This document shows, one piece after another, positions 1,516-62,630 of a DNA stretch of 64,000 nucleotides. Each line of letters opens with the position of its first letter. Position 1 is the first letter of the stretch. The translations under genes were made by a program, and so were the position numbers. Source of the DNA: a virus; the IMG/VR virus record IMGVR_UViG_3300025782_000011, positions 2,214 through 66,213 of that record; one strand, written 5' to 3'. Under the pieces are notes generated by a model. It saw only the letters and a program-made list of their open reading frames with translations. It did no database searches and was not told where the DNA came from.

Positions 1516-1545
1516 GGCGAAAACTATTAAAAATATGCATTAGTA
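1515..1545 (+). promoter_or_regulatory. phage promoter motif GGGCG-N16-TGCATTAGTA
   Basis: Exact copy of a motif recurring in intergenic positions upstream of genes. Confidence 0.75.
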
Positions 1546-17642: not shown

Positions 17643-17644
17643 TA
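17614..17644 (+). promoter_or_regulatory. phage promoter motif GGGCG-N16-TGCATTAGTA
   Basis: Exact motif upstream of the 17698 gene. Confidence 0.75.
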
Positions 17645-24089: not shown

Positions 24090-24364
24090 TGGCTAATAGC
24101 GCTTCAGTTACGCGATTTAATCAGTATTTTCCATATATTCCAGCATATTCAACATGGAATGATTTTAATGGGAATATTATTTTGTTTTATAGTGGTCAAC
24201 CCATACCACATACGGATGAAGCTAATTGGAAGCATACAGCAAATAATATGGCTCAACTACCAGTATTTTCCAGTTACCCACTCCCCAACCCGGAATTATT
24301 TGATAATTGGCAAGATTGGGCACACCAATTTAGTTTAATTGTGAATGGTAGACAGCGTCAATAG
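24089..24364 (+). CDS. hypothetical virion protein
   Basis: Translationally coupled to the nozzle gene. Confidence 0.5.
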   Translation: MANSASVTRFNQYFPYIPAYSTWNDFNGNIILFYSGQPIPHTDEANWKHTANNMAQLPVFSSYPLPNPELFDNWQDWAHQFSLIVNGRQRQ

Positions 24365-24394
24365 GGCGTATAATAGGCCTTTTTTGCATTAGTA
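24364..24394 (+). promoter_or_regulatory. phage promoter motif GGGCG-N16-TGCATTAGTA
   Basis: Exact motif ending 7 nt before ATG 24402, consistent with a leaderless start. Confidence 0.75.
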
Positions 24395-24401
24395 TACCTA
24401 G

Positions 24402-24857
24402 ATGATATCATACCAAAAAGAAACCGTTTCATCATTTTTAAAAGACGCATATCCTTTATTTGATGAACACCATAAAGAAGTTTCTGAACGCCAAGATGTA
24501 ATTAACCATAATCTAAATGTTGATCAATTTAGACTTATGGAAAATAAAAATATGTTAGAAATTCTAACTATTCGAGATGATGGTAAATTAATTGGATATC
24601 ATACTTGGATTTTATTTAAAGCATTACACTTTAAATCAGTTTTAACAGCATCATCAGATTTATTATTTATTTTGCCAGAGTATCGTAAAGGATTATTTGG
24701 CTACAAGTTCCTTAAATGGAGCTTATCTGTAATTAAAAAACGTAAACCGCAAAGAGTTTTGATTGGTATTAAGCCAAAAAATGATTTTAGTAAGATACTA
24801 AAAAGACTCGGTGCAAATCATTTTGAAACAACTTATTCGATAGTATTGGAGCAGTAA
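24402..24857 (+). CDS. GNAT-fold acetyltransferase-like protein
   Basis: RDDGKLIGY...DLLFILPEYRKGLFG acetyl-CoA binding pattern. Confidence 0.65.
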   Translation: MISYQKETVSSFLKDAYPLFDEHHKEVSERQDVINHNLNVDQFRLMENKNMLEILTIRDDGKLIGYHTWILFKALHFKSVLTASSDLLFILPEYRKGLFGYKFLKWSLSVIKKRKPQRVLIGIKPKNDFSKILKRLGANHFETTYSIVLEQ

Positions 24858-37100: not shown

Positions 37101-37515
37101 TTAGTATCTTTCCAATAATTATTGCAGCATGTTTTGCTGCATCTTTTTCTGTTATTTTAAAATCGTATTTGCTAGGTGGTGTAAATATTTTGTTAGTGTC
37201 TTCGTAACGTCCTTCCTTGATGGTGTCCATCCATACAGTTATTTGTGGCTCAAACAGTGCATACATAAGTTTTGTCGGACAAACAAAATCGCATATGACA
37301 TAATTTTCGTTGGATTGTTTTGCTAGGTAATACATTCTAGCGGATTGTCGTAATCGACCATTATCAGAAAAGTCCCAGTCATTGAAGTCTTCCCGAACTC
37401 GATCCGCATTAAACCATTTAACAGATTTGTTATGTTGTTTTAATTGCTTCATCAAAGCGCGGGCCATTGTTGTTTTGCCCGCGCCAGGAAGACCCATGAC
37501 TAAGATTTTTTGCAT
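37087..37515 (-). CDS. adenylylsulfate kinase-like P-loop protein
   Basis: GLPGAGKTT, NADRVR...DWDFSDNGRLRQ. Confidence 0.7.
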   Translation of the reverse strand: MQKILVMGLPGAGKTTMARALMKQLKQHNKSVKWFNADRVREDFNDWDFSDNGRLRQSARMYYLAKQSNENYVICDFVCPTKLMYALFEPQITVWMDTIKEGRYEDTNKIFTPPSKYDFKITEKDAAKHAAIIIGKILNGSI

Positions 37516-38033
37516 TAGACTGCGAAGTCAGCTGCAGCAGAAGTGCCACCGCCTAATTGATCTCCGTCTTCTAACTTTTGTACGTTATTTAAACCGCACG
37601 CAATACCTTTGTTACCTGATGCATTATATGGATACATGGTGACTGAAGCACGACCATAGCAACCACTATAGAACTCTGAAGGATCAATGATCGCATTCAT
37701 ATTAGCATCAACAACGCCTGGTTTTTGTGCTGAGTTTGCATTGATGAAATATGAGTTAGCATATGCTGGATCATCTTTCTCTGCATCACCATCACGTAAA
37801 CCGCCTTTTAAATTCTTTGGAACTGCACCGCCAAAGAATGCTGCGTTTGTATTTGCTGCATCTTCAAAAGCTTTTTGAAATTTAGCTACAGTTTCTGTAT
37901 CAGACTTTGGAATAATCAAAGATACTGAATACTTTGGTGTACCACCTTCAACTGCTGCACTTGGTTGAAACACGTGCGCATATGAAAAACGTACTTTACC
38001 TGTAACAATTTTAATTTTATTTGTTGCTGCCAT
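37515..38033 (-). CDS. ssDNA-binding protein, DUF2815 type
   Basis: VRFSYAHVF...KYSVSLIIPK...LRDGD...YSGCYGR...GIACGLNNVQKL. Confidence 0.88.
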   Translation of the reverse strand: MAATNKIKIVTGKVRFSYAHVFQPSAAVEGGTPKYSVSLIIPKSDTETVAKFQKAFEDAANTNAAFFGGAVPKNLKGGLRDGDAEKDDPAYANSYFINANSAQKPGVVDANMNAIIDPSEFYSGCYGRASVTMYPYNASGNKGIACGLNNVQKLEDGDQLGGGTSAAADFAV

Positions 38034-39616: not shown

Positions 39617-39647
39617 TACTAATGCAAAAAAATAGGCCCTTTCGGGC
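39617..39647 (-). promoter_or_regulatory. phage promoter variant GCCCG-N16-TGCATTAGTA overlapping a terminator-like hairpin
   Basis: Minus strand TAGGCCC-GAAA-GGGCCTA-T7-GCATTAGTA upstream of the exonuclease operon. Confidence 0.65.
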
Positions 39648-39676
39648 CTAATTATTTTTATTTATTTTGGGCAAAA

Positions 39677-40223: not shown

Positions 40224-40254
40224 TACTAATGCACAAATTACTCTGTTTTCGCCC
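40224..40254 (-). promoter_or_regulatory. phage promoter motif GGGCG-N16-TGCATTAGTA
   Basis: Exact motif on the minus strand upstream of the DUF1289-like and TerS-like genes. Confidence 0.75.
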
Positions 40255-40686: not shown

Positions 40687-40892
40687 TTAGTTCTCCTTTT
40701 ATCTAGTTCTCGTTGAATATACCATATTGCCTTTTCTAAGTCTTCAATGGCATCGTGTTTTAGATCTGCACGCCAGATGTATTTCACCGCATTCCCAAGA
40801 CAGAAGTTCATGTGTTCTGTAATTTGAATGCACTCTATACCGCTTTGATGTCCTGTATAATGTTTAGGATGGTTGACTGGATCATGTTTCAT
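40683..40892 (-). CDS. DUF3310 family protein
   Basis: DPVNHPKHY...IECI...FCLGNAVKYIWRA...EDLEKAIWY. Confidence 0.85.
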   Translation of the reverse strand: MKHDPVNHPKHYTGHQSGIECIQITEHMNFCLGNAVKYIWRADLKHDAIEDLEKAIWYIQRELDKRRTK

Positions 40893-41215
40893 ACGCTTAG
40901 CTCCTTCTTTATTTTCTCTAATCCTTTTTGGAAATGGTACCGCCAATATTTCTCAGTTACCGAAATATCATTATACGTGAGTCCATCCAAAAATGCTTCA
41001 AAAATAAACTGTTCTTTAGGATCTAGAATATTATCAATGATTTTTCTAACGTCATTGATATCTTCTGAATTCCATGGAAGCCAGCCCTCGGATGCCGGGA
41101 ATGCATAATGCGCCTCTTTTGAATCATCGCGCTCCATAATATCTGGATCTTCGTCTGATAGCCGAGGCAACATAGCATTAACCACATGCTTAGTTTCATT
41201 AGTAGTAGTTTTCAT
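40889..41215 (-). CDS. stand-alone sigma70 region-4-like protein
   Basis: IIDNILDPKEQFIF...GLTYNDI-SVTEKYWRYHFQKGLEKIKKEL aligns by eye with sigma region 4, with a ~4-residue deletion in the first HTH helix. Confidence 0.55.
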   Translation of the reverse strand: MKTTTNETKHVVNAMLPRLSDEDPDIMERDDSKEAHYAFPASEGWLPWNSEDINDVRKIIDNILDPKEQFIFEAFLDGLTYNDISVTEKYWRYHFQKGLEKIKKELSV

Positions 41216-41219
41216 CGTA

Positions 41220-42554
41220 CTATACTAATGCAAATTTTAAGGCATTTAGGACGGCATTTTGTAAATTTATTTTGCCCTCTAGCACTCCTATAACTTGGTT
41301 ATCGATACTATTTTCTATAGCTAAATGGTGGATAATGACGGGTTTTGTTTGACCTTGGCGGTGTATCCGAGCGTTGGCTTGAATATAGTTCTCGCTTGAC
41401 CATGGTAGGTCGTACCATACAATCTGTGCCGTCTCGCCTACGTTACACTGTAGGTTGATACCAATCCCTCCTGATTGGGGATGACAAAGTAACATAGGCA
41501 CCTTGCCATCACGCCAATCTTGATGGTTAATTTCGTCCAACATTTTTGCCTGTGGAAATCGTTCTTTGAGTTTTTGCAGGGAAGCCTTGAAGTGATAGAA
41601 GACCAACGTCGGCGCGTTCTCATCTAGCATGTCTTCCATAAAATCTATCTTGGCTGTGTGGATACACGTCCATGATCCGTCTTCTTTATATATTGATCCG
41701 GAAGTAAACTGCAGTAGTTTATTTGATAGAGTCGCGGCGGTTGGTGCTGTGATCGTCTCATCGCCAATTTCTAACACCATGTCATTGAGTAGCTTTTTAT
41801 ACTGCGCCTTTGAGTCTAGCCCTAAATAAATATTGTGGTAGATTTTAGTGATCTCTGGTAGCTTTAGATAGTCCTCAGCTTTTAGTGAGAAGCAAATGTC
41901 CTTGATCTTATCTTGGATGATAGTCTCTTGACCCTCACGTATGCCCCACTTATACACGACGCCAGTGTGCCAGTTCTTGTCAGTGGGCTCCATGTATTTT
42001 TGTCTAAAGCGTGTGATCGATGTCTCTAACCTTGCACCTAAATCTAATATGCCGACTTGACTCCACAAGTCGCCATATCCTTGAGGTGTAGGTGTGCCTG
42101 TGAGAATAACACGGCGCTTAAATGTTTTGAGTAGTGGTTTGAGTGCCTTGAATCTTTTAGTTGACGGATCTTTGAAGCGTGACGATTCATCGATGACTAA
42201 GTTGTCGAATGGTATTTTTAATTCTGTGAGCCAGACTACATTTTCCAAGTTAGTGATGTAGATGTCTGAGTCGCGCTGCAATGAAGCTGCCCGCTCTTTT
42301 GGATTGCCTAACACTTTGGATATGCGCAAATGTTTTAGGTGATCCCATTTTGATATCTCTTCAGTCCACACAGACTCTGCCACCTTCTTTGGTGCAATGA
42401 TCAGTGTGCGTCCTTTGAATTGTTCCGCGATGATAGTGAGCGTGGTTGTTGTCTTGCCCAGTCCAGGGGGTAAAAATAGTCCCAAATTGGGAATAGCTTT
42501 CGCTTTCTCAATAATATCTTTTTGGTATTGATGTAAGTTATTTCTGTTGAGCAT
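41220..42554 (-). CDS. SNF2-family helicase
   Basis: PPGLGKT, VIDESS, LTGTP, QANARIHRQGQ. Confidence 0.9.
   Translation of the reverse strand: MLNRNNLHQYQKDIIEKAKAIPNLGLFLPPGLGKTTTTLTIIAEQFKGRTLIIAPKKVAESVWTEEISKWDHLKHLRISKVLGNPKERAASLQRDSDIYITNLENVVWLTELKIPFDNLVIDESSRFKDPSTKRFKALKPLLKTFKRRVILTGTPTPQGYGDLWSQVGILDLGARLETSITRFRQKYMEPTDKNWHTGVVYKWGIREGQETIIQDKIKDICFSLKAEDYLKLPEITKIYHNIYLGLDSKAQYKKLLNDMVLEIGDETITAPTAATLSNKLLQFTSGSIYKEDGSWTCIHTAKIDFMEDMLDENAPTLVFYHFKASLQKLKERFPQAKMLDEINHQDWRDGKVPMLLCHPQSGGIGINLQCNVGETAQIVWYDLPWSSENYIQANARIHRQGQTKPVIIHHLAIENSIDNQVIGVLEGKINLQNAVLNALKFALV
41223..41232 (-). promoter_or_regulatory. TGCATTAGTA element without GGGCG
   Basis: Ends 7 nt before ATG 41215, the same spacing as at 24402. 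Confidence 0.6.
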
Positions 42555-42906
42555 GTAAGTGTTCCCAAATCCAGTCTGCTATTTTATACATTTCTTCCAT
42601 CGATGCGTTATCTTTTATTCTATTGGCGCGTTCTGATATAAATGCCACGTTACCTACCACGTATCCTTTATGTGGCAGTATACGATCTAGTGTTGGGGCA
42701 GTTTGTTTTTGTTTACCTTTACCTAAACCCGATTGACCCCACTCAAATGGAATTTTAAATATTGGACACTCATCGGTTGCGATAGATTCCAAATATTCTT
42801 TGGTTAAATTAAAGGGAAGGTTTTTTCTCTTTGCTCTACTTCTAGCATTGAAATAAAATCTATTTCTTATCTGTTTTTGTTTCGCTGTTAATTTTGATAA
42901 ACGCAT
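42538..42906 (-). CDS. HNH-like homing endonuclease
   Basis: ARSRAKRKNLPFNL...CPIF...PTLDRILPHKGYVVGNVAFISERANRIK. Confidence 0.75.
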   Translation of the reverse strand: MRLSKLTAKQKQIRNRFYFNARSRAKRKNLPFNLTKEYLESIATDECPIFKIPFEWGQSGLGKGKQKQTAPTLDRILPHKGYVVGNVAFISERANRIKDNASMEEMYKIADWIWEHLHAQQK

Positions 42907-43150
42907 CTATTTCTTCTTCACTAAACAGAACCGTTACCGTGAACCCCTGCTTTTCGAGTAGGCGGAATACGACTGACTGTCTTGGAGAGAGTCGGCCTGA
43001 CTTTGCCTTTAGTTCCACCAAGTGCACTTTTTTGTTTAGGAACGCTATCCTGTCTGGTACTCCCGTCACTGTGCTTATCCACTTGAACGTCAGACCCCCC
43101 GCTTTCTCCACTGAGTTTTTGAAGTATTTTTCTATGTGTTTTTCCAGCAT
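42860..43150 (-). CDS. VRR-NUC nuclease
   Basis: MLEKHIE...GVPDRI...VELKAKSGRLSPRQ. Confidence 0.85.
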   Translation of the reverse strand: MLEKHIEKYFKNSVEKAGGLTFKWISTVTGVPDRIAFLNKKVHLVELKAKSGRLSPRQSVVFRLLEKQGFTVTVLFSEEEIDAFIKINSETKTDKK

Positions 43151-43544
43151 TTTTTTCCTTTTCCATAACGCAAGCTTTGAATAGTTGACGGACAATTGAC
43201 TCTGATAAGTACGCACGTGTTTCCTCTGTAAATATTTCCTCTTCACCGATGTAGTCACTGATGCGTTCTATAATATGCACTGTCTCATGGGCAATCGTTG
43301 CCACCATCTCATCAACGCTGTCATGCATATCATCTAAATTAAATACGACGACAATGATGCCTTTCTTGCCAGTGTCAAAATAGTGTGTCTCGGCTACACC
43401 TGTCTGGAGTGCCGTGATGTTTTGATCTGTGATGTTTTGATCGCGTAAGATATCTTGGAATTGCGTGTCATTAAAACACAACTTAACGCAACGTGGAAAG
43501 AATCCTATGTCTACATTGTAGTAACTATACTCTTTTGGTTTCAT
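42921..43544 (-). CDS. HExxH-containing hypothetical protein
   Basis: IAHETVH...EETRAY. The C-terminal tail overlaps VRR-NUC in another frame. Confidence 0.55.
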   Translation of the reverse strand: MKPKEYSYYNVDIGFFPRCVKLCFNDTQFQDILRDQNITDQNITALQTGVAETHYFDTGKKGIIVVVFNLDDMHDSVDEMVATIAHETVHIIERISDYIGEEEIFTEETRAYLSESIVRQLFKACVMEKEKNAGKTHRKILQKLSGESGGSDVQVDKHSDGSTRQDSVPKQKSALGGTKGKVRPTLSKTVSRIPPTRKAGVHGNGSV

Positions 43545-43800
43545 GCTTTAGGATCTCCTTTAGATCACGTTTAGCTGTATCATCAATCGTGGACGATGGC
43601 AGAATAGGATTTAAAAACCGTTCAATCGCGGCGGTGATTGGGTAACTGATTTCATACCATTCTCGATCGAGTGTTTCGTTTAGTATTTTTTCTCGGTGCG
43701 TTGGTGTCCACCCTGTCACGATGGTTGTCCACTTGCTTCCTCTTTGTACTTCGACCGCTACGTTCCTGTGGTAGTTCATCAGCACTCTGGCCATTTTCAT
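43525..43800 (-). CDS. hypothetical protein
   Basis: Coupled ORF in the replication operon. Confidence 0.5.
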   Translation of the reverse strand: MKMARVLMNYHRNVAVEVQRGSKWTTIVTGWTPTHREKILNETLDREWYEISYPITAAIERFLNPILPSSTIDDTAKRDLKEILKHETKRV

Positions 43801-44014
43801 ACTCCGTCGTTATGTTTATCCAAATACCATCGCGTAGGTGTTGCAGTACGCGCTCTCCGTTTGATCTAACAACCCATCTAAGCTCCATCGTCTTCACCAT
43901 ATTTGTAATTGATGTCTTGAATGGTCTCAATTAAAAAGACTAATATGTAACCAATCCACCACAAATAACTTGCATGGTAGTTGTAAAGCAAAAACGCTGT
44001 CATTAATTCAACCA

Positions 44015-46333
44015 TTAAAAATCTCCCTCATCAAATGACACAATGCTGTTGACGTATCGTTGAGCACTGTCTGTTAATTTAATGCCACGATACACGTGAC
44101 TGCGTACACCATTTTGTCTTTCGACACCGACTTCAATATTGTACTCTTGTGTTGCTGCCAAGAAGCGTCGTTTAAATGCAAGCTCACTGCCGGGTGGAAT
44201 CTTACGTTTGATCGCCCAACGTGAGTAACATGCAAACACATCATCTTTTGACACCGCGGCGTCTGCCTCAAATACAAGCGCGTCTTCTACGAATGTACCG
44301 ATTGGGTTTCCTAATTCGGTCATAAGTTCTAGGTAGGCGCTACCTGATTTAGGTTGTACAAAATAACCACCACGCTCTAATCGACGACGTAATCCTTCCA
44401 TCGCCCAGTTAAAGATGCCACTGAGTTCTTTGGATAACTTATACGCAAGCTCTGTATCCTCTTTGTTGTAGAATGTTTTGGTCATCTTCAACACGATCAT
44501 TCGTCCTGTGAGGGCGTTTGAGTTTTCGGTAAGTTGGAGGACTTCGTTTGAATAAATAACAATTCGCGTAGGGAGGTATCCGTTCCAAGCTTCTTTATTC
44601 TTACGATTAACAGTAACGGTATCGCCACCAACAATACGAAGCAGCTGAGAAACAACGGCATTGCGATTTCGTTCGGGAGCACGTGCGTCAGTGAAACTAG
44701 CAAGCAACTTGTTAAGCCAAGGCTGTAAGCCAAAAGTATCGCATAGCTCACCCAACTCAGGAGCGACGGTATTGTGCTGACCCAAGAGTGATACCAGCAC
44801 TTTATTAATAGTGCCTTTTCCAGATCTACGTGGCCCGATGATGTTGAAGAATTTCTGTTGACGCGTGTCGCCCGATAAAATGTATCCAAACATCTCTTGC
44901 AAGGTTTCGATTGAGTCATTGTCATTTTCCCATACTGATTTTAAAAAGTTTATCCACACTGGACACTCTGCATTTTGATCGTACTGGAATGCTAAAGAGT
45001 TCTGTGTAAAGAATCCCAATGAGTGCGGAATCAATACGCGATCCTCAACATGGAACAATCCATTTTGGAGTGATATCAATTTGGATGCATCTGGTTTATC
45101 TTTCTTATACTTATCAAACCAAATCGGTGGTCTTGTGTTTGCATGGTTAGGTAAGTGCACGATTGATTTAAGTGCATCCATCGCAGCACTCACTGACGCT
45201 GGTGTTGGGTTGAATGGTTGTATCTCTTGCTTACGTCCTATTTTTTTGCAGTGATCTAAGAATTTATAAATGTCTGATCTCACTGTGAGTTCTTCAATTG
45301 GTTCGTAGTGTGTCTTGTCGTGAATATAAAAGTCCTCTGCGTAGTGAACTAATCGATAGCCTTCCTCTGAGTTGTAGAAGTTATCTAGAAACTTACGTGC
45401 ATGTGACATGACATTATTATCGAGGATCGTCTCACCTCGATCTAATGCCTCTTGCAACTTTTTTTGATTGACCTCAAATATCAAAGAGCGGAGAGTGGCG
45501 CCCGAACCCTTAAACGTGCGCCACTTGCTCTCACAACTGTTGAGGCCAGTTGTTTGGTACTTATGCGATTGGCTTGACCATCGATCCCACAACTCACACC
45601 ACTCAATGTCACCCTGACCTTGATGGTGGAGTATGGCACCGATTTTCAACCATTCTGCGTATCCCGTATCGGGAGAATAATTTGGTAAGATCTCTGCCTC
45701 TACCTTAGCGATGTCGTAATTTTCTACAGGCGGTGTGTAGTCATTAAACGCGTCGCCTGTTTTACTAATCTGTCTTTGTGGCACGATGGCGGTCACGTCT
45801 TGTTCTGTTGCTGGAATCGTGCCTGAGATATGGTGACCTGTTACGGTAAAGTATCGTGCGTGCGGATATACTTCTAAACCGATCGAATGATCCACGTGCG
45901 CATTTTGTATTGAGGCGCGTGTGAATATCTTGACACCCGTGCCTGATGGTGAGACTTCCATATACCCGTTGAGTCGCGACGCAATGTCCTGGGATGGCGG
46001 GGAAGTGAATTGATGTGTGGTTGGATCGAGGCAGTCGTCTAGGTCTATGCCAACGAGGTTATCTTCTGTGGAGAAGACAAAGCCCACGCCGTCAAACTTG
46101 CCGGGGTTTGACTCGTAGGCATGTTGGACAGTCACGAAGGATGACCACTGATCTTGGTTTGTAGATGACGCTGACTGACCATTGGGCTGCATTGGCAACT
46201 TAGACCAGCGCTTGGTTGTCTCATCGCCAACTTGGACGAGACGCCAGAGTACCCACCTGTCTATTTGTTTGAGTTCGATGGGTATATTATTAAATTGCAC
46301 AGGTAACGTCTGTGGCTTGGTGGTGTCGTTCAT
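44015..46333 (-). CDS. primase-polymerase / D5-type SF3 helicase
   Basis: GIDLDDC...EVSPSGTGVK prim-pol, PriCT-2-like YAEWLKIGAILH...WDRWS, Walker A GPRRSGKGT. Confidence 0.9.
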   Translation of the reverse strand: MNDTTKPQTLPVQFNNIPIELKQIDRWVLWRLVQVGDETTKRWSKLPMQPNGQSASSTNQDQWSSFVTVQHAYESNPGKFDGVGFVFSTEDNLVGIDLDDCLDPTTHQFTSPPSQDIASRLNGYMEVSPSGTGVKIFTRASIQNAHVDHSIGLEVYPHARYFTVTGHHISGTIPATEQDVTAIVPQRQISKTGDAFNDYTPPVENYDIAKVEAEILPNYSPDTGYAEWLKIGAILHHQGQGDIEWCELWDRWSSQSHKYQTTGLNSCESKWRTFKGSGATLRSLIFEVNQKKLQEALDRGETILDNNVMSHARKFLDNFYNSEEGYRLVHYAEDFYIHDKTHYEPIEELTVRSDIYKFLDHCKKIGRKQEIQPFNPTPASVSAAMDALKSIVHLPNHANTRPPIWFDKYKKDKPDASKLISLQNGLFHVEDRVLIPHSLGFFTQNSLAFQYDQNAECPVWINFLKSVWENDNDSIETLQEMFGYILSGDTRQQKFFNIIGPRRSGKGTINKVLVSLLGQHNTVAPELGELCDTFGLQPWLNKLLASFTDARAPERNRNAVVSQLLRIVGGDTVTVNRKNKEAWNGYLPTRIVIYSNEVLQLTENSNALTGRMIVLKMTKTFYNKEDTELAYKLSKELSGIFNWAMEGLRRRLERGGYFVQPKSGSAYLELMTELGNPIGTFVEDALVFEADAAVSKDDVFACYSRWAIKRKIPPGSELAFKRRFLAATQEYNIEVGVERQNGVRSHVYRGIKLTDSAQRYVNSIVSFDEGDF

Positions 46334-46354
46334 AAGGGTTTCTTTCTGTTGTTG

Positions 46355-46843
46355 TTATTCTTCTAGTTTAATTTTGCCTATGTAACTAAATCCATCAATG
46401 TGTGAATCATTTAATCCAAAAACAATATCACCTTTTTTTGTGCCCACTTCCAATAAAAAAGCATACAAATATTGAGGCTCTTTATTTTCTCTTTTTAATA
46501 TAGTAAAGGTTTCAATAGGGATATCTTTTCTTTTATAGGCGTTGTCACGACCTAATTTATATCCTGCTATCCATGCCTGCCACATTTTTTCATCATCATA
46601 TTTAAGTTCACACATGCTAGGACTTTGTAAAAATACTCTTTCATACCACCATGTAAACTCTTCATTTGGTTCTGGGTTCATTTCTTTAGGTTGTGGTTTA
46701 ATGCGGTATTCCCAATGAGTTGCATCCCAAATTGGAGTTTCAACATATTGCCATTCTTCATTTTCATCAGATAACCATTTAGCTTCAATCTTTTTACCTT
46801 CAGCCCATGCTTTTATTTCTTTATGCCATTTATGTTGTTTCAT
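46355..46843 (-). CDS. hypothetical protein
   Basis: HKWHKEIKAWAEG...PIW...EYRIKP phage pattern. Confidence 0.6.
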   Translation of the reverse strand: MKQHKWHKEIKAWAEGKKIEAKWLSDENEEWQYVETPIWDATHWEYRIKPQPKEMNPEPNEEFTWWYERVFLQSPSMCELKYDDEKMWQAWIAGYKLGRDNAYKRKDIPIETFTILKRENKEPQYLYAFLLEVGTKKGDIVFGLNDSHIDGFSYIGKIKLEE

Positions 46844-47076
46844 AACATGCTCCTTACCTTTTTAAATACTTCTCGTCTATCACTAAATTTAACTTTGCCT
46901 TGTATTTCAACAGGACTAAAAAATGCAGTCCATCCATGATCAGCATGAAATGTTCCTGTAACCTTTTTACCGTTAATAGTATCAAAATAAATCCAAGGAT
47001 AATTGGCAGCAAAGGTTACATCTATACCTAATTTATTGAGTCTATGCACAAATGTTTTTATTCGATATTCATTCAT
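46840..47076 (-). CDS. hypothetical protein
   Basis: RLNKLGIDV...NYPWIY. Confidence 0.55.
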   Translation of the reverse strand: MNEYRIKTFVHRLNKLGIDVTFAANYPWIYFDTINGKKVTGTFHADHGWTAFFSPVEIQGKVKFSDRREVFKKVRSML

Positions 47077-47097
47077 TTATCTTCCCCCTTATGCCAT

Positions 47098-47313
47098 TTA
47101 TGTTGTTTTATTTTGTTTCTCCACTTTTGCTATTTTCTTTTTGAGCCAAAGATAATCAGCCATTGCGTCACCTTTACCCTTGTCATACCAATTTAAAGCT
47201 TGTTTGCTAAATAACTTTCTAATAATCCAAGGCAAGCTTGCATGGAATTGCAACATACTTAATTCAAGCTTTCCTTCTATTAGATTCATTTTTTGTTTTC
47301 TAGTAAGTTTCAT
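47098..47313 (-). CDS. hypothetical protein
   Basis: RBS AAGG, same strand as the operon. Confidence 0.5.
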   Translation of the reverse strand: MKLTRKQKMNLIEGKLELSMLQFHASLPWIIRKLFSKQALNWYDKGKGDAMADYLWLKKKIAKVEKQNKTT

Positions 47314-47479
47314 TTATATTTACCTTTTAAATTGCGCATTTTGTCATATATTCTCTTATTTTTGTCAGACGTACGCTTTTTTATATGTCTGCCATTAAAC
47401 AGGAGTCTACCACACAATTTTCTAATTTGGTACACAATCATTTTGCATTTGCCTATTTTTTAATCAGATGTTAAGCCAA

Positions 47480-47707
47480 AAAGACACAGAAGACATAGAA
47501 GACAGGGTACGTGTTTTGTCGCTTTTTGGATAGTTTTCCAATTTCTCATTTTCCAAGTGATTGATTAATAACATCTTATTTTTTACCGAGCCATAGAAGA
47601 CACAGAAGACACCCTTTATTCCAGTTTTTTAGTTTTTTTAATAAAATAAAAAATAAAAGATACGGATAAAGTGCGTTTATACTGTGTCTTCTATGTCTTC
47701 TGTGTCT
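47480..47707. repeat. iteron-like element A, putative replication origin
   Basis: Three clusters of tandem 9-mers AGAAGACAY (two direct, one inverted) around an AT tract. Confidence 0.75.
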
Positions 47708-47812
47708 CCAAATTCATTATAGTAACATTCAATGTAGGGGAATATGATCCTACAAGCAAAATATACCGACAAAATGATGACATACCATTTAGCGACCTGC
47801 CACCATGTCTTT

Positions 47813-48064
47813 TCATCGTCTAACTTCATAGCCTTTGTCCCCCATTAAATTATATGCCCACTTCTTAAACGCTTCATTGTTCTCGTCGTTATGTTCATCC
47901 CTGTCATCCCATAATGCCTGAATGATAAATTCACCCTTTTCATCATGAAATTCTATTTTGAGTAGGTGTTTTGTAACTGGGTCAAATATATCTGTGGGAA
48001 TCGCCACACCTTTCGGTGCGGTTAATTCCTCAATGATGTCTGCTGTTAATCTTTGCTCTGTCAT
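47813..48064 (-). CDS. hypothetical protein
   Basis: Follows the glycosyltransferase gene. Confidence 0.55.
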   Translation of the reverse strand: MTEQRLTADIIEELTAPKGVAIPTDIFDPVTKHLLKIEFHDEKGEFIIQALWDDRDEHNDENNEAFKKWAYNLMGDKGYEVRR

Positions 48065-48065
48065 A

Positions 48066-48812
48066 TTAATTGCTCACTATTGAACCACTGAACGTATACG
48101 TGCCAGTGTGTGTTAAAGATACCCAAGGTGCTGCCCAAACTTTATAGCCATGCTTCCTTGCCAATTTACAGAAGTGATAATCTTCTGATAGTAGTTTATT
48201 ATCATCAGGATCAATCGATGTGTCAAAGAATTGATGAATGATCTTTGGTTTGCGTTCTGTATCAATCGCAGCGTACATATCTGATGTGTATGTCGGTACA
48301 TGCTTCATCAGTCCTTCAAATACTTTACGCTTGATTAACATGTAGCCCGTACCACCGCTTACGATTTCTAATGGTTCGTTAATTTTACCTGTTGCTGATT
48401 TGTTATCAACTAACAACACAACAAATTCGCCTGTGTGTTTGTGCAAGTCTGCAAAAGGTACACCATCCTTGACTGCCTTCTCAACTTTGATCCAGTTAAT
48501 CTCTTTCTTTGGATACAAACCGCACACAATGTCTTTGTCTGCTGAAATCATATCAGGAATATGTTTTGGATCGAATCCAATATCTGCGTCGATGAATAAT
48601 AAGTGTGAGCAGTCGCTCTTGATAAAGTCGTGCGCTAAACTATCACGCGCTCTTGTAATGAGTGATTCGTTCATCATGAATGAATAATGCATCTTGATAC
48701 CTTGCGTCATCATCATGTGAACCAGATTGGCTAAACCAATAGCATGCGTGCCAGTACACATACCACCATACATGGGCGTTGCTACAAATATCTTGGCGTC
48801 TTGCGGTTTCAT
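48066..48812 (-). CDS. GT-A fold glycosyltransferase-like protein
   Basis: VATPMYGG, ESLITRARD, LFIDADI, LSEDYHFC. Confidence 0.75.
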   Translation of the reverse strand: MKPQDAKIFVATPMYGGMCTGTHAIGLANLVHMMMTQGIKMHYSFMMNESLITRARDSLAHDFIKSDCSHLLFIDADIGFDPKHIPDMISADKDIVCGLYPKKEINWIKVEKAVKDGVPFADLHKHTGEFVVLLVDNKSATGKINEPLEIVSGGTGYMLIKRKVFEGLMKHVPTYTSDMYAAIDTERKPKIIHQFFDTSIDPDDNKLLSEDYHFCKLARKHGYKVWAAPWVSLTHTGTYTFSGSIVSN

Positions 48813-49405
48813 ATTTTTCTTACTCCTAGTTGATAATTATTAATAATGATTTCATACTGCTTTGCAAATACTTTTAAGAAGGCATCGACGCCAATCTTTG
48901 GTTGGTTTAATTCGCCTGGGATGTCAGTCCAAAGGTAATCATCAAACAACATGATACCGCCTTTGTTTAATAATGGCCATGCCATGCATGCATCGGTGAG
49001 TGTATCGTAGCCAGTATGTGATCCATCGATGTAGATAAAATCAAACTTGGCATCTTGTTTAATAAGATCTGTTAATCCATGGTATGACATCTTTGGTATG
49101 GCTATGTATTTTTGACCTACACCAATCACTTCAGACACATTACCTACGAATGTTTGATAGAGGTGAGTTAGATTCATATGCTCATGTTCTACACTGCCTT
49201 CAAATGTATCGATGCAGGTGATGCTCGAACCATATGGTTCTAATCCATTTTGAATGAGCCACGTTGTAGCTCTACCTTCAAAACATCCTATCTCCAAAAA
49301 TCTTGTTTTATTGTTTAATGTTTTCATGCAAAGTTCCATGTTTGGAATATTGAATGAAAACCAGTCTGTTGTAAAATTCATTTTGTTGTCCTTAATTGAG
49401 TCCAT
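48809..49405 (-). CDS. class I SAM-dependent methyltransferase, Methyltransf_24 type
   Basis: LEIGCFEG, CIDTFEG, FDFIYIDGSH, FDDY. Confidence 0.85.
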   Translation of the reverse strand: MDSIKDNKMNFTTDWFSFNIPNMELCMKTLNNKTRFLEIGCFEGRATTWLIQNGLEPYGSSITCIDTFEGSVEHEHMNLTHLYQTFVGNVSEVIGVGQKYIAIPKMSYHGLTDLIKQDAKFDFIYIDGSHTGYDTLTDACMAWPLLNKGGIMLFDDYLWTDIPGELNQPKIGVDAFLKVFAKQYEIIINNYQLGVRKI

Positions 49406-50082
49406 GGATAATTACCATTATACCTATCCAATGTCACTTTGTTATTTTTTGTGATAACTTTAAGTAACCTATCACGCATTCTATAATTGACAGAATATTC
49501 ACCATTGCATTCATAGTCTGGTAAATTGGTTGCGATACCTTCAAAGAAATCTCTATCTGCATAATATGAATTCGTATAGAAGTGATGTGCGAATCGTGCT
49601 AAGTATTTACGCTTGAAGCAATAGCAATTGGTATCGACATATCTTTTAGCAACAGAATCCACCGGTGGCCATTTGCCCAGGCTATCACAATTATCATCTG
49701 CAATATAATTACCATCGGTGTCTACAATTTTACGAAGGCTATAACACCAAGTAAGATCGTGTTCTTTGATAAAGTTGATCATCTTTTCTACATGGTCAGG
49801 TTCAAACCAATTATCTTCATCCAAAAATAATATGTAGTCTGCATTGGATAGAAGCGGCATCGTTGCATATATTCTGTGACCATTCCACCCATTGGCTCCG
49901 GTGTTCTCAGGCAACATGACCATCTTTGCATTTGGATAAAGTTTAAGTTCTGCATTGAATCCACCATCTGCCACAATGATGTGTTCTGTTTTGATTGTTT
50001 GGTTGTAGACACTATCAATGGCTTGTTGTAAATACTGAGTGCCAATCGTAGGTGTGATGACTTGTATTCTTGGATTATTCAT
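49378..50082 (-). CDS. glycosyltransferase family 2
   Basis: VITPT...AIDSVYNQT...IVADG...FLDEDNW. Confidence 0.8.
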   Translation of the reverse strand: MNNPRIQVITPTIGTQYLQQAIDSVYNQTIKTEHIIVADGGFNAELKLYPNAKMVMLPENTGANGWNGHRIYATMPLLSNADYILFLDEDNWFEPDHVEKMINFIKEHDLTWCYSLRKIVDTDGNYIADDNCDSLGKWPPVDSVAKRYVDTNCYCFKRKYLARFAHHFYTNSYYADRDFFEGIATNLPDYECNGEYSVNYRMRDRLLKVITKNNKVTLDRYNGNYPWTQLRTTK

Positions 50083-50647
50083 CGTGATCTTCCACTGTGT
50101 TTGTTTCATTGATACTATCCAATGACACAGGCTCATAGGTTAAATAGTTTTGGAGTTGTCTTACTTTATCGACTTCAACACCCATCATCGTAGCTATCTC
50201 GTTAAGCTTTGGTTTGCGACCAAGTACTTGTGAGAGTGCTCGCTCGTTGTAATTCATTTTCTTGATCGCTTCCATAATGTTTACTGGCATGCGTATCACA
50301 TTGGCAGTGTTGTCCATGTCTCGTCTAACTCCTTTTAATATAAATGATCTAGCATAGGTTGCGAACCTTGCATTATTTTTTGGTACCCATCTTTTGGCAG
50401 CAATCACTAAATGTTCGTTACCCATGCTAATAAGATCCTCAACAGGCATCTTGCCATAAGTCCATGCCGTTGTACTTCTTAAAATATAAACCACGAAACG
50501 TAGATTATGCTTAACAAGTTTATCTAATGCTGCCTTGTTGCCTTTCTGAATCTGTTCAGATAATTTGTGTTCTTCTTCGGTGGGTAGTGGCTCTATGCCA
50601 AATAGGGATTGTAGGTAATCGGTTAGTAAGTCTGTTGGTTCACTCAA
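50075..50647 (-). CDS. sigma70-family factor lacking region 4
   Basis: Region 1.2 (YLQSL...PLPTEEE), region 2 (LVKHNLRFVV...DLISMGN...RFATYA), region 3 (IRMP...LGRKP...EIA...PVSLD), then stop. Confidence 0.85.
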   Translation of the reverse strand: MSEPTDLLTDYLQSLFGIEPLPTEEEHKLSEQIQKGNKAALDKLVKHNLRFVVYILRSTTAWTYGKMPVEDLISMGNEHLVIAAKRWVPKNNARFATYARSFILKGVRRDMDNTANVIRMPVNIMEAIKKMNYNERALSQVLGRKPKLNEIATMMGVEVDKVRQLQNYLTYEPVSLDSINETNTVEDHDE

Positions 50648-52054: not shown

Positions 52055-52083
52055 ATTGTCTTCCTATTTATTACAGATGTCAA
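52055..52083 (-). promoter_or_regulatory. sigma70-type early promoter
   Basis: Minus strand TTGACA-17 nt-GACAAT upstream of ATG 52017. Confidence 0.6.
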
Positions 52084-52094
52084 TTAAAATTTAT

Positions 52095-52257
52095 CCAAGT
52101 GACATTGGGTTCTAAAAAAGCCCAAGTGACATTCGTATTTATCCAAGTGACATTGAGATTGAGTGCAGCCCAAGTGACATTCGTATTTATCCAAGTGACA
52201 TTGGGTTTTCCGTTTATCCAAGTGACATTGGGGTTTCTCTTTTATCCAAGTGACATT
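52095..52257. repeat. array of seven CCAAGTGACATT 12-mers
   Basis: Copies at 52095, 52122, 52143, 52170, 52191, 52218, 52246. Confidence 0.92.
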
Positions 52258-52697
52258 GACATATAACCACAATCGCATTATGGTTATTAATAACCACAAT
52301 GGCAAAAGGGTTAATGAATGAGAATGATTATCATTATCACAATGCCCCTCGAATTTTAGAAAATGCCCCGATCGCCCCGAAATCATGGCTCGAGCCCTAA
52401 AATGCTTAAAAAATAGAGTGCAATTCATCGCACAATCGCTCTATACGCGATTCTTTTTATCTATCCTATACTTACCCCCTTTCAAAAAATGATCGTGATT
52501 CAATGGCTTTAAAAAGCCCCTTTTTAATATATGGCTCTCACAATCGCATTTTAAGCGATTATTTTTTGGCACTTGATGTCATATCATTAAGCCAAATATC
52601 GCCTTGCTCAATGGTTATAAAATGCCCCTCAAAATCGATTCAATTCGATCGAATCGATCGCTGATTTAATACTTATTTAATCGCTCGAATAGCATCC

Positions 52698-55764: not shown

Positions 55765-55950
55765 ATCGTACCTTTCTTATTAATATATACATGAGCGAAA
55801 GTGCTCACCCCCGATTATATGCGATCTAAAAAATAAAAGATCATTATTATTGGATTCTTTTTGATTTTGATTTCAAATCGGGTGCTCACCTCTGATAAGT
55901 TTTGATTATCATGGTCACTCGCCCCCCGAGCTTTCGCGTACGCGTATTCT

Positions 55951-56236
55951 CGCCCCCTCGATGCCTCGCCCCCTCGATGCCTCGCCCCCTCGATGCCTCT
56001 CACCCTTATTGGCTCGATCGCGATGCACTCACCCTCATTGGCATCATGCCTCGATGCCTTGCTGATTGCCCCGATCACCCTCGCTCACATCATGCCTCGA
56101 TGCCTCAATGCCTCGCGATCGAGCGAAGCATTGAGCTTCGATGCGATGCGATCGAGCGAAGCATTGAGCTTCGCAATCAATCAGGCATAGTGCATCATGC
56201 CTCGCAATCATAGCAATAGATTGCGAGGCATGATGC
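55951..56236. repeat. short-repeat region near the putative genome end
   Basis: 3x CGCCCCCTCGATGCCT (55951-55998), 2x 26-mer (56115, 56148), and a perfect 18-bp inverted repeat (56192-56209 / 56219-56236). Confidence 0.85.
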
Positions 56237-56497: not shown

Positions 56498-56716
56498 AAA
56501 GACATAGAAGACATAGAAGACACAGTATAAACACAGTTTGTCTCTATCTTTTATTTTTTATTTTTTAAAAATAATAAAAATATGGAATAAAGGGTGTCTT
56601 CTGTGTCTTCTGTGTCTTTTAGAAAAATATTATTAATTAAATCAATGGGTTAAAAAATTAGTGTTGCAAAAAAACAACAAAAACCGTACCCTGTCTTCTG
56701 TGTCTTCTATGTCTTT
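56498..56716. repeat. iteron-like element B, inverted copy of element A
   Basis: Same three AGAAGACAY clusters with the same flanks (CAGTATAAAC, CCCTTTATTCCA, GGGTACG) in reverse-complement order. Confidence 0.75.
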
Positions 56717-56798
56717 TTTAATACTTTGGTTTAATCTAAATCTGTAAGTCATTGATTTAATTATATGTAAAAATAATAGGTAGGAAATAGTTAAAATT

Positions 56799-56866
56799 TG
56801 CATTAGTATACTTACCTTGGATTCATGGAAATCCGTAGCCATATGTTTATAAAACTCGCATTAGTA
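56799..56866 (+). promoter_or_regulatory. two (T/C)GCATTAGTA elements upstream of pqqA
   Basis: TGCATTAGTA at 56799 and CGCATTAGTA at 56857, neither with a clean GGGCG. Confidence 0.5.
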
Positions 56867-56910: not shown

Positions 56911-56982
56911 ATGTGGACTAAACCAGCAGCTACTGAAATGCGTTTTGGCTTTGAAGTAACAATGTACGTAATGAATAAGTAA
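56911..56982 (+). CDS. pqqA: PQQ precursor peptide, 23 aa, not in ORF track
   Basis: MWTKPAATEMRFGFEVTMYVMNK with the ExxxY motif, RBS AGGAG, own terminator. Confidence 0.95.
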   Translation: MWTKPAATEMRFGFEVTMYVMNK

Positions 56983-57012
56983 TCAAAAAGTTGCATTTAA
57001 TGTAACTTTCTG

Positions 57013-57041
57013 GAAGGGGCTTAAAACGTCCCTTCTTTTTT
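57013..57041 (+). terminator. intrinsic terminator after pqqA
   Basis: GAAGGGGC-ttaaaac-GTCCCTTC-TTTTTT. Confidence 0.75.
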
Positions 57042-57065: not shown

Positions 57066-58058
57066 ATGGCAATAACAGCAATCCAACAAGTGCTAACACT
57101 TGACTATTGGAAAAGAGCAGACAAAGTAAAGATTGGCGATTATGTTTTTAACAAGGACGGCGAGATTGTCCAAGTTAAACTCGTCCAGCATTATTATGCC
57201 AATGAATGTTATGAAGTGACTTTTGATGACCATCTCACTATTCGTGGAGATAAACATCTAGGATTTTTAATCCAAGATAGAAATCATCGAAAGCAATTAG
57301 ATGCTTATAAAAACATCAGGCCATTTAAACGACAGTTGAAGTTTACTAAATTGGAAAACTTAATCGATCTGTCATTGAAAGATAAAAGAGGTCGCACTAA
57401 GTATTCAATACCTACGACGAAACCCATAGCGTTTCCTCATCAGGAATTAAGCATACCACCTTTTGTGTTTGGTTATTGGCTTTATAACAAAAACAAAAAA
57501 CATCAGATGGTCACAATCCCAGGCTACCAAGATTTCATTTATGAAAAGTTTAGAAGCCATGGATACAAAATTATAGAAGGGCCAAAAAGAAAAAACGGCA
57601 AACGCGTATTTATAACAGAGCCAGCTATTCATTTACAATTGGCTCCGAATATACCAAGCAGATTACCTACAAATTATTTGTTTGCATCTGTAGAAGAACG
57701 CATCGAATTATTGACTGGCATCATGCATGCTAAGTCAGCGCAATATGAAAAAAGAAATGACAGGTTTAGATTCTCATCTAGGAATTTAAATGTTGTGGTG
57801 CAGATTCAAAGTTTAGTTGAATCGTTAGGCTCAAAGACATCCATTCTGTTTAACCCAGCTCGAAATACATACACATTGTATTTTAAGTTTAGGATTAAGA
57901 TTATGGATATCCAAAAGTCTCCACCCATCAAAGTGTATCCAAGTAGAAGATACATTAAAGCCATTGAACCCACACAATCCCAAATGTGTGTTCATATAGA
58001 AACAAACGGACCAGACAACTCAATCCTTGTTGGAGAAGGATTTATACAGACATGTTAA
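57066..58058 (+). CDS. free-standing intein-like protein (Hint plus degenerate LAGLIDADG)
   Basis: Hint N-part VLTLDYWKRADKVKIGDYVFNKDG...CYEVTFDD, middle IPPFVFGYWL...YLFASVEERIELLTGIM, Hint C-part RRYIKAIEP...ILVGEGFIQTC-stop. Confidence 0.75.
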   Translation: MAITAIQQVLTLDYWKRADKVKIGDYVFNKDGEIVQVKLVQHYYANECYEVTFDDHLTIRGDKHLGFLIQDRNHRKQLDAYKNIRPFKRQLKFTKLENLIDLSLKDKRGRTKYSIPTTKPIAFPHQELSIPPFVFGYWLYNKNKKHQMVTIPGYQDFIYEKFRSHGYKIIEGPKRKNGKRVFITEPAIHLQLAPNIPSRLPTNYLFASVEERIELLTGIMHAKSAQYEKRNDRFRFSSRNLNVVVQIQSLVESLGSKTSILFNPARNTYTLYFKFRIKIMDIQKSPPIKVYPSRRYIKAIEPTQSQMCVHIETNGPDNSILVGEGFIQTC

Positions 58059-59491
58059 CAGACAAACAAGAAGCCATACTAAAGAAGTTTGCAGAAACTC
58101 ATAAGCACTGGCCAAAGCAGCAACTTGATGCTGCATTGTGGCAAGTCAAGTGGGCGCTTCAAGCACTCCCTCATCAACGCGAACCAGAAGATGGCGAGTT
58201 TGATACCTTCCTTATGTTAGCAGGACGGGGATCAGGAAAGACTCACACAGCCTCTCACTGGATCGGCATCCGTGCGTGGAAATATAACAACACTCGCTGG
58301 TTAGTCACAGCACCAACCTCAAACGATATTCGTGCAACATGTTTTGAAGGTGACTCTGGTCTGCTCAATATTATACCATCATCTTTAATCAAAGACTACA
58401 ACAAATCATTATTTGAAATTACTTTAACCAATGGATCATTGATCCAAGGTATCCCTGGTTCAGAACCAGAACGTTATCGTGGTAAGCAATTTCATGGCGC
58501 ATGGTTTGACGAGTTGTGTGCGTTTGAGTATTTAGATGACGCATACGATGGTGTTCAGTTTACGCTTCGTCTTAAAGATCCAAGAATCCCTCGCGTTCAG
58601 CAGATCATTACCACAACACCAAAACCAAAAGAACTGATCGTTGACTTAAACGAAGGTAAAGTTGGTGGTGATGTGTATGTCGTCAACGCATCATCATACG
58701 ATAACAAACAACACTTATCCGAAACCTTCTTCAAACAGTTAGAAACATACGATGGCACAGACATCGGTCGTCAAGAGATCTATGGTGAGATCCTAGATCC
58801 TGAACAAGCTGGTATTATCAAACGTAAGCAGTTTAGATTATGGCCTGCAAATAAGCCAACACCTAACTTGGAATATGTAATTGCCAGTTACGATCCGGCA
58901 ACATCTGAAAAAACAATGAACGACCCAACGGCATGTACGATATGGGGTGTGTTTGAACAAGAAGATGCAGGCACATCTATAATCTTACTCGATGCTTGGG
59001 ACGGACACTTAGCTTATCCAGAACTTCGTCGCAAAGTCATTGATGACTTCAAAGAAGTTGTCTATGGAGCTGATAACGATTTCGGAAAAGGAAGAAAAGC
59101 CGATCTCGTATTGATGGAAGATAAGTCAGCTGGTATCTCACTCATTCAAGAACTACAAGGTTCAGGCATTGAGGTGCGAGGTTACAATCCCGGTCGTGCT
59201 GATAAAGTTCAGCGTCTTAATATTGTAGCACCTATCATAGCGAAGGGCAAGGTTTATATTCCAGAAGATCCTGAACGACCTGGCGAATATGCAGACTGGG
59301 CAAAACGTTTCTTGCGCCAAGTGTGTTCATTCCCAGAAGCGGGCGGTCATGATGACTATGTAGATTCTTTATCACAAGCGCTACGTGTATTGCGTGACTC
59401 AGGATGGATTCAATTAGATCCATTACCTGCGCGTGATTATTCGTACGCAGATGACCGATCCAAACGATTTGAAAATCCGTATGCGATGTAG
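58052..59491 (+). CDS. terL: terminase large subunit
   Basis: Walker A AGRGSGKT, Walker B WFDE, ITTTP, nuclease YDPA...HDDYVDSLSQ. Start 58052 is coupled to the upstream stop. Confidence 0.92.
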   Translation: MLTDKQEAILKKFAETHKHWPKQQLDAALWQVKWALQALPHQREPEDGEFDTFLMLAGRGSGKTHTASHWIGIRAWKYNNTRWLVTAPTSNDIRATCFEGDSGLLNIIPSSLIKDYNKSLFEITLTNGSLIQGIPGSEPERYRGKQFHGAWFDELCAFEYLDDAYDGVQFTLRLKDPRIPRVQQIITTTPKPKELIVDLNEGKVGGDVYVVNASSYDNKQHLSETFFKQLETYDGTDIGRQEIYGEILDPEQAGIIKRKQFRLWPANKPTPNLEYVIASYDPATSEKTMNDPTACTIWGVFEQEDAGTSIILLDAWDGHLAYPELRRKVIDDFKEVVYGADNDFGKGRKADLVLMEDKSAGISLIQELQGSGIEVRGYNPGRADKVQRLNIVAPIIAKGKVYIPEDPERPGEYADWAKRFLRQVCSFPEAGGHDDYVDSLSQALRVLRDSGWIQLDPLPARDYSYADDRSKRFENPYAM

Positions 59492-59521
59492 GGCGGAAGA
59501 AACTAATAATTTGCATTAGTA
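59491..59521 (+). promoter_or_regulatory. phage promoter motif GGGCG-N16-TGCATTAGTA
   Basis: Exact motif upstream of the portal gene. Confidence 0.75.
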
Positions 59522-62600: not shown

Positions 62601-62630
62601 GGGCGGAAATCCTAAATTAATGCATTAGTG
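62601..62630 (+). promoter_or_regulatory. phage promoter variant GGGCG-N15-TGCATTAGTG
   Basis: Near-exact motif upstream of the GroES/scaffold operon. Confidence 0.7.

Follow-up and report, generated by a model that had tools for sequence, protein, structure and literature searches.

Nearly all sigma factors consist of one polypeptide chain: region 2 binds the polymerase core and reads the -10 element, region 4 reads the -35 element and binds the beta-flap, and the region 3.2 linker joins the two readers. A natural cut at this linker asks how far promoter recognition needs the tether, and also whether the -35 reader can come as a separate, separately timed subunit. Sigma factors made of two polypeptides are on record for T4, SPO1, SigO-RsoA and Tn916 Sig7-Sig8, according to the available part of the source (bioRxiv 10.64898/2026.10.01.756105), and Francisella MtvS1-2 is possibly a further split sigma, judging by the accessible portion of another (PMC13627669). 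Here we describe a probable further case, for which all of the evidence is computational, in a 64,000-nucleotide stretch of DNA from an uncultured freshwater phage (the window) that corresponds to bases 2214-66213 of the 66,213-bp IMG/VR virus record IMGVR_UViG_3300025782_000011, rated complete by CheckV. The two proteins concerned are sigma-N (190 amino acids), the product of the open reading frame (ORF) 50075-50647 on the minus strand, and p108 (108 amino acids), the product of ORF 40889-41215 on the same strand.

T4 gp55 has a domain-2-like part only, and late activation in T4 needs the sliding clamp (gp45); to our knowledge, T4 late promoters have no -35 element and gp33 binds no DNA. The T4 pair resembles sigma-N and p108 in that a phage sigma without domain 4 goes together with a small acidic protein in the domain-4 position, and in that the genes are unlinked, the late genes of T4 needing both gp55 and gp33 (available parts of PMC13627669 and bioRxiv 10.64898/2026.10.01.756105). 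Unlike T4, sigma-N keeps regions 1.2-3, p108 has a predicted helix-turn-helix and a -35-like GGGCG is conserved, and this predicted helix-turn-helix argues against p108 being a co-activator of the gp33 type, with no DNA binding and a clamp-binding tail. The sizes of the SPO1 pair are nearly equal to those found here, Gp34 having about 197 residues compared with the 190 of sigma-N. SPO1 Gp33 has at least 101 residues, as judged from the clone gp33(15-101), compared with the 108 of p108, and Gp34 is reported to lack the entire sigma-A domain contacted by Gp33 (PMC13401047, in the part available). Gp34 and Gp33 are products of middle genes, both needed for late transcription (PMC13401047; bioRxiv 10.64898/2026.10.01.756105; both as accessible in part). 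The comparison of Gp33 with p108 covers size and description; no p108 sequence match was present among 50,697 phage records (tblastn, no match at E<=0.1).

In Bacillus subtilis SigO-RsoA and in Tn916 Sig7-Sig8, two polypeptides jointly give regions 2 and 4 and read the -10 and -35 elements (bioRxiv 10.64898/2026.10.01.756105, available part). These group-4-like factors are encoded by adjacent genes, with the break lying within region 2 or region 4 or between the two, whereas sigma-N is group 1-3-like, contains regions 1.2-3 and ends in region 3.2, with the p108 gene 6-10 kb away. Francisella MtvS1 likewise has no domain 4, and a contact with the beta-flap is predicted for MtvS2, but that system is cellular, the DNA binding of MtvS2 is non-specific and the accessible portion of the report describes no bipartite promoter (PMC13627669). 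The pair described here departs from the known split sigmas in four respects, namely retained regions 1.2-3, a cut in region 3.2, a predicted DNA-reading domain-4 partner with a matching -35-like element, and genes 6-10 kb apart. A literature search, with supplements outside its reach, found no description of the sigma-N/p108 phage family. The family suits the questions raised by a natural cut, as it is large, keeps both halves and has two clear promoter classes, with small parts and explicitly defined promoters. If the reading is true, the few known split sigmas would gain a documented example and synthetic circuits a source of orthogonal parts.

The sigma-N ORF, which starts at a TTG codon, encodes regions 1.2, 2 and 3 and the first residues of region 3.2, and region 4 is absent. 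Region 3 was recognized by Pfam Sigma70_r3 (E 3.5e-8, 33.9 bits, cut-off 25.3). Region 2 was identified from Sigma70_r2 (E 9.5e-5, 22.6 bits, slightly under the 24-bit cut-off), from precomputed PF04542 assignments in many relatives and from phmmer coverage against SigA; Sigma70_r1_2 matched with an E value of 0.025, and PHROG 351, 'RNA polymerase sigma factor', with 1.2e-28. In a phmmer search of PDB sequences, residues 22-178 of sigma-N aligned to residues 167-319 of Thermus SigA (E 1.6e-21), the alignment ending at EPVSLD/EPVSLE, the start of region 3.2, after which 12 further, mostly acidic residues precede the stop codon. In the AlphaFold2 (AF2) model, helices extend to residue 170, and the tail (172-190) has a predicted local distance difference test (pLDDT) score below 50.

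No region 4 match was obtained with Pfam in the sigma-N ORF. A six-frame Pfam search of the whole 66-kb genome found r4_2 nowhere, and its sole r4 match was weak (E 0.014) and lay within the region 3 of sigma-N itself. The gene that follows and overlaps sigma-N (49378-50136) encodes a family-2 glycosyltransferase and contains no displaced region 4. The position of the stop was the same in 15/15 related loci (60-71% identity to sigma-N), the best 120 homologues were 188-221 residues long, with r1_2, r2 or r3 present and a region-4 Pfam family in none, and open frames of 187-231 residues were found in all 80 sigma-anchored loci. Judged from these sequences, the missing region 4 is a conserved feature and does not reflect a broken gene. 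Thus, the description given for this ORF by an earlier model-made annotation of the same DNA (the sequence-only reading), namely regions 1.2, 2 and 3 ending after PVSLD, an overlap with the next gene and no region 4, agrees with Pfam, phmmer and the relatives. The paired Trp of SigA region 2.3/2.4 (FSTYATWWIRQ in Thermus) are replaced in sigma-N by FATYARSFILK (residues ~95-106), a replacement with which a non-canonical -10 element would fit. Sigma matches from Bacillus phages (H17 and H19) were full-length proteins and were discarded as irrelevant.

The p108 ORF (40889-41215, minus strand) is present with the residues quoted in the sequence-only reading, and its product consists of an acidic disordered N-terminal half followed by a region-4-like helix-turn-helix domain (residues 49-108) according to the predicted model. 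The AF2 model gave pLDDT values of 47-62 for the N-terminal half and of 88-94 for residues 50-108, with helices at 50-63, 66-76 and 88-106. A Foldseek search of the PDB returned SigB, SigH, SigD4 (region 4) and SigF in the top four rows (E ~0.3, probability 0.94-0.98). In agreement with this, VIA-align, a method independent of Foldseek, placed named sigma factors in 20 of its 21 top rows when run against 48,161 representative chains, superimposing residues 49-108 on sigma region 4 (Z 6.2-7.8, 52-60 residues aligned, root-mean-square deviation 1.8-3.3 Å). What counts in this comparison of a predicted model is the uniform list of sigma factors and the coverage of the whole domain. Structural look-alikes in the ESM Atlas included small Sigma70_r4 clusters, and sub-threshold Sigma70_r4_2 matches were obtained for 18/38 and 4/21 p108 relatives in two sets (best E 0.003). 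The suggestion that this ORF is an isolated region 4 is favored by the predicted fold (AF2, Foldseek and VIA-align), though with Z below 8 and residues 77-87 non-helical in the model, and on the side of sequence the evidence is weak, with no Pfam match.

The p108 family is uniform (198 proteins of ~92-113 residues), and several features are invariant in its alignment (A1): a PRLSDEDxD..E motif, two Trp and, close to the C-terminus, VTEKYWRYHF. The VTEKYWRYH segment, located in the helix at the recognition-helix position, is near-invariant in 236 family members. PRLSDEDxD may correspond to the region 3.2 finger. The only PHROG match of p108 was a weak one to a family of unknown function. One member, P0258 (229 residues), has a p108-like N-terminus joined to orotidine monophosphate (OMP) decarboxylase and is probably an assembly or gene-call chimera; a second profile (A2) searched against the PDB was dominated by its C-terminus and was set aside as uninformative on p108.

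Relatives of both genes are plentiful among freshwater viral contigs, with 415 contig stretches in IMG/VR encoding p108 and 221 encoding the sigma, and no match or close relative came up when 50,697 deposited phage records were searched with the DNA of the region for near matches. In the window, 8.9 kb separate the stop of the sigma gene from the start of p108, which agrees with the ~9 kb previously noted between the two parts. The two genes are retained together, as would be expected of a pair: where p108-anchored contigs extend at least 7.2 kb upstream, sigma-N is present on 19/20 (15 within the locus, 4 farther up the contig), the sole exception being a 9.2-kb fragment, and sigma-N was also found in 31/35 loci with enough flank from distant p108 subfamilies (30-45% identity). 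Reciprocally, p108 was present on 44/45 sigma-anchored contigs with at least 9.8 kb downstream, at 5.8-9.7 kb in 36 and farther along in 8, and the one contig without it ends ~10 kb downstream. The check on related phages proposed in the sequence-only reading thus came out in favor of joint retention. The pair is always on the same strand, with the sigma gene first and 6-10 kb between the two. Judged by domain content and predicted fold, the parts that would read the -10 and the -35 element lie on two polypeptides.

A SNF2-type helicase gene directly precedes p108 in at least 64 of 80 loci, and another gene lies between them in about ten. In some relatives a second paralogue of p108 is also encoded, 0.5-0.9 kb ahead of the sigma gene (L189:9808-10357, L188:7600-7945, L190:9821-10136 and L192:8828-9275), in which PKLWEE replaces PRLSDE and TEK(K/T/H)WRYH(L) is found in the helix that takes the recognition position. 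A C-terminal extension is present in two of these four proteins (those of L188 and L189). The usual p108 copy behind the helicase is also present in L188 and L190 and, for the L189 contig, in locus L047.

Analysis of the window revealed eight exact copies of TGCATTAGTA, each facing the next gene, and 29 matches to this 10-mer with up to one mismatch, compared with 8.2 +/- 2.8 in 100 shuffles (largest 15). GGGCG is located exactly 16 nt upstream in five of the eight copies (1536, 17635, 24385 and 59512 on the plus strand and 40224 on the minus strand), as part of a wider element, T(A/G)GGGCG(A/G)AA. These bipartite sites, each consisting of GGGCG, 16 nt and TGCATTAGTA, precede ORF 1643-2215 of the structural block (1515-1545, plus strand; homologues in the related genomes G006 and G008), ORF 17698-18738 (17614-17644, plus strand; homologues in G006, G008 and G009), ORF 24402-24857 (24364-24394, plus strand, with 7 nt between site and ATG, as in the homologues of G006 and G008), the portal gene 59560-62385 (59491-59521, plus strand) and, on the minus strand, a DUF1289 gene together with a terminase-small-subunit-like gene (40224-40254; GGGCG-bearing homologue in G006 and G008). 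A sixth site, at 62601-62630 on the plus strand, is a variant with one mismatch and consists of GGGCG, 15 nt and TGCATTAGTG.

The copy of TGCATTAGTA at 41223-41232 (minus strand) lies 7 nt before the ATG of p108, within the final codons of the helicase gene, and has no GGGCG. On the minus strand, a terminator-like hairpin followed by TGCATTAGTA (39617-39650) precedes the exonuclease, ribonucleotide reductase and DNA polymerase genes, and has homologues without GGGCG in G006 and G009; on the plus strand, TGCATTAGTA together with CGCATTAGTA (56799-56866) precedes a 23-residue pqqA gene and the terminase genes. Only one of the three TGCATTAGTA sites without GGGCG is clean, since 56799 has GGTAG at 15 nt, and 39617 has GCCCG at 16 nt, in the stem of the terminator hairpin, in place of GGGCG. 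The division proposed in the sequence-only reading thus stands for the GGGCG-less site before p108 and for the presence of both elements before structural genes, and it does not extend cleanly to two of the three sites without GGGCG. A scan for sigma-70-type promoters between 38000 and 57500 was uninformative (67 found compared with 64 +/- 9 expected).

The motif and its two classes are conserved in relatives. Four of the five related contigs searched contain 6-10 exact copies of TGCATTAGTA each, compared with 0-1 for a reversed control, and the fifth has none and carries a TGCATTAATA variant instead. In a set of 80 loci from relatives, the orientation of 146 out of 150 distinct sites followed that of the genes, and GGGCG was present at 42 of the 150, with a spacing of 16 nt in all 42. 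In distant subfamilies GGGCG-N16-TGCAT is kept and the downstream element varies. In four genomes, the GGGCG class precedes homologues of structural and packaging genes, and GGGCG-less sites stand before p108, exonuclease, DNA polymerase, primase and some further genes; this sorting by gene function, which bears out in relatives the division proposed for the window, is imperfect, with a few GGGCG-less sites inside the structural block.

As for p108 itself, the motif is found 4-11 nt before its ATG in 38 of 53 distinct upstream regions, none of the 38 having GGGCG. In 35/35 distinct relatives whose motif runs into the 3' end of the helicase gene, the codons GCA, TTA and TAG were invariant and nearby Ala and Leu codons varied synonymously, which points to selection on the DNA itself. 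The distance of 7 nt between motif and ATG at p108 and at ORF 24402 in the window, together with 4-11 nt and 7 nt, respectively, in relatives, suggests that these messages are leaderless or nearly so; such short gaps would fit if the -10 element were ATTAGT after TG-n, and the register TAGTAT would fit less well.

In several relatives, GGGCG-less sites before the primase gene and before the homologue of 37515-38033 have a palindromic CAYATTGTGRAA ~21 nt upstream of TGCATTAGTA (G009:C1:6018 and 17891, L188:10338, L190:12394, L047:14405 and G007:C1:21647), of which the window has no copy. A link between this palindrome and the second paralogue (class A) was considered and found unsupported, since the 46 kb of G009 contain the motif and no class-A gene, and the majority of loci are too short to judge. 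Hairpins with a T-run directly abut TGCATTAGTA at 39633-39650 in the window (minus strand) and at G006:C1:39223, G009:C1:20999 and L047:12217 and 17361, which suggests that the terminator of one unit is fused to the promoter of the next. At some of these terminator-TGCATTAGTA sites, GGGCG lies within the hairpin stem.

Taking together the computed domain content, fold and co-occurrence and the two promoter classes with their conservation, we consider it rather more probable than otherwise that sigma-N and p108 are the two pieces of one sigma factor, which is naturally divided in region 3.2 and encoded by unlinked genes. From this we infer how the pair would bind the polymerase, how p108 would read GGGCG and in what order the two would act. 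The phage would make its sigma factor as two polypeptides, of which sigma-N would dock on the host RNA polymerase core via domains 2 and 3 and read TGCATTAGTA, an extended -10-type element most likely in the register TG-n-ATTAGT. The acidic disordered N-terminal half of p108 may follow the path of the region 3.2 linker, with its region-4-like helix-turn-helix sitting on the beta-flap and reading T(A/G)GGGCG(A/G)AA, which ends 16 nt upstream of TGCATTAGTA, in a -35-like position. An invariant VTEKYWRYH helix would match this invariant DNA target. Promoters with both elements would drive structural and packaging genes, and those with the downstream element only would drive p108 itself and the replication genes.

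A further step is the cascade proposed in the sequence-only reading, which agrees with the observations and which we put forward tentatively and with more doubt than belief. In it, sigma-N alone would fire the promoters that contain only TGCATTAGTA (replication genes and p108), and docked p108 would then add -35 reading and switch transcription to the late promoters, so that the programme would be timed by supplying a sigma domain in trans. Activity of sigma-N alone at GGGCG-less sites is reasonable because sigma-70 without region 4.2 still uses extended -10 promoters. Under the same scheme, the second p108 paralogue of some relatives may give the same sigma core a further promoter class. Our estimate for the cascade is tempered by the 15 of 53 distinct p108 upstream regions that lack TGCATTA[GA]TA and by the position of p108 directly behind the helicase gene, from which it could also be read by transcripts coming from upstream; both argue against a universal cascade.

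Several results weigh against p108 being the region 4 of a split sigma. Window p108 had no Pfam match at E<=1, region 4 included. The A1 profile retrieved 34 short proteins and no full-length sigma from 1.84 billion representatives, gave spurious matches only among PDB sequences and reached a best E of 0.13 in an hmmsearch against five full-length sigmas from phage records, which is not significant in that five-sequence database. Smith-Waterman alignments of p108 with sigma C-termini did not exceed 300 shuffles (z -1.4 to 0.3); the best of them joined p108 residues 18-71 to a stretch of 56 residues running from VSLE into region 4 in two SigA-like proteins, co-linear and matched in length, and was not significant. 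Since no sequence method links p108 to a full-length sigma, its homology to regions 3.2-4 is argued from the fold. Even in the AF2 model, residues 77-87 are non-helical, and the first helix of the helix-turn-helix would thus be shortened or absent, and VIA-align itself warns that Z values below 8 may reflect a common helical arrangement and are not decisive. Covariation between the helix at the recognition position and the -35 element could not be used, both being near-invariant. Finally, recent work on SPO1 assigns to Gp33 the part of an inhibitor bound to host sigma-A, and not that of a -35 reader, in the portion of the report available (PMC13401047), so an inhibitory role has to be weighed for p108 as well.

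One alternative is that p108 is a stand-alone helix-turn-helix activator, LuxR/GerE-like or region-4-like, which would bind GGGCG and recruit the sigma-N polymerase, leaving the beta-flap unoccupied. LuxR/NarL-type regulators (DesR, EsrB, NarL and VpsT; Z 4.8-5.8) do appear in the lower VIA-align rows, but 20 of the 21 best rows are sigma region 4 and cover the N-terminal helix 49-63 that the LuxR-type matches omit. The distance of 6-10 kb between unlinked genes and the failure to show sequence homology of p108 to sigma would suit an activator of this kind, for which, however, the invariant acidic N-terminal motif would be superfluous. Strict co-occurrence with a sigma that misses exactly region 4 and a GGGCG spacing fixed at 16 nt, in a -35-like position, also argue against it, and we judge it improbable.

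Alternatively, p108 may mainly shut off host transcription through the beta-flap or the region 4 of the host sigma; sigma-N would then need no -35 reader, and GGGCG would be read by another factor or by nothing. A precedent exists in T4 AsiA, which occupies the beta-flap or binds host sigma region 4. The very acidic character of p108 would be in keeping with such a role, as would SPO1 Gp33, a partner of ~101 residues for the domain-lacking sigma Gp34, which inhibits sigma-A-dependent transcription (PMC13401047), and T4 Gp33, which takes the role of domain 4 (PMC13627669), both as described in the accessible parts of these reports. A shut-off protein would nevertheless hardly account for a predicted helix-turn-helix with an invariant exposed helix, nor for a conserved element located where that helix would reach, and the genome showed no further candidate for reading GGGCG; we regard this explanation as decidedly unlikely. 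That p108 is a conserved protein of the replication module with no part in transcription, sigma-N and host factors reading TGCATTAGTA and GGGCG, is very hard to credit, as its place behind the SNF2-type helicase gene and the lack of a family name from sequence searches are set against a region-4-type fold, the weak r4_2 matches in 18/38 relatives and the second paralogue upstream of the sigma gene in some of them.

The genes of sigma-N and p108 lie within a long early/replication block on the minus strand, which runs from ~55.8 kb down to 32.8 kb, and the structural genes are on the plus strand. The window has a G+C content of ~39%, and no tRNA was found in it. A search of genome contigs for p108 relatives returned contigs from metagenome-assembled genomes (a beta-proteobacterium, Lishizhenia and a Bacteroidetes bin), which are not reliable for assigning the host, and the sole match on an isolate contig, from Anaerofustis stercorihominis (26 residues, 58% identity, E 3e-4), is weak and equally unreliable for this purpose. 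The 23-residue product of the ORF at 56911-56982 (plus strand) is a precursor peptide of the PqqA family (Pfam PF08042, E 6.4e-11, 42.4 bits, cut-off 21.1); this ORF closely follows the TGCATTAGTA sites 56799 and 56857 and is itself followed by a terminator-like hairpin (57012-57036). Among phages, pqqA is on record from Lake Baikal, in viruses that infect methylotrophs, according to the part of the source available (PMC7678222), which hints at a methylotroph host here.

Matches to the terminase large subunit span two overlapping ORFs (57066-58058 and 57986-59491, plus strand). The divergent intergenic region contains dense tandem repeats at 55933-56210 and 56586-56726, made of 16-nt CTCGCCCCCTCGATGC-type units and 9-nt GTCTTCTGT units, and a 28-nt repeat unit containing CCAAGTGACATTG is present in five copies at 52080-52258. 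All three sets of repeats are candidate origin or operator sites.

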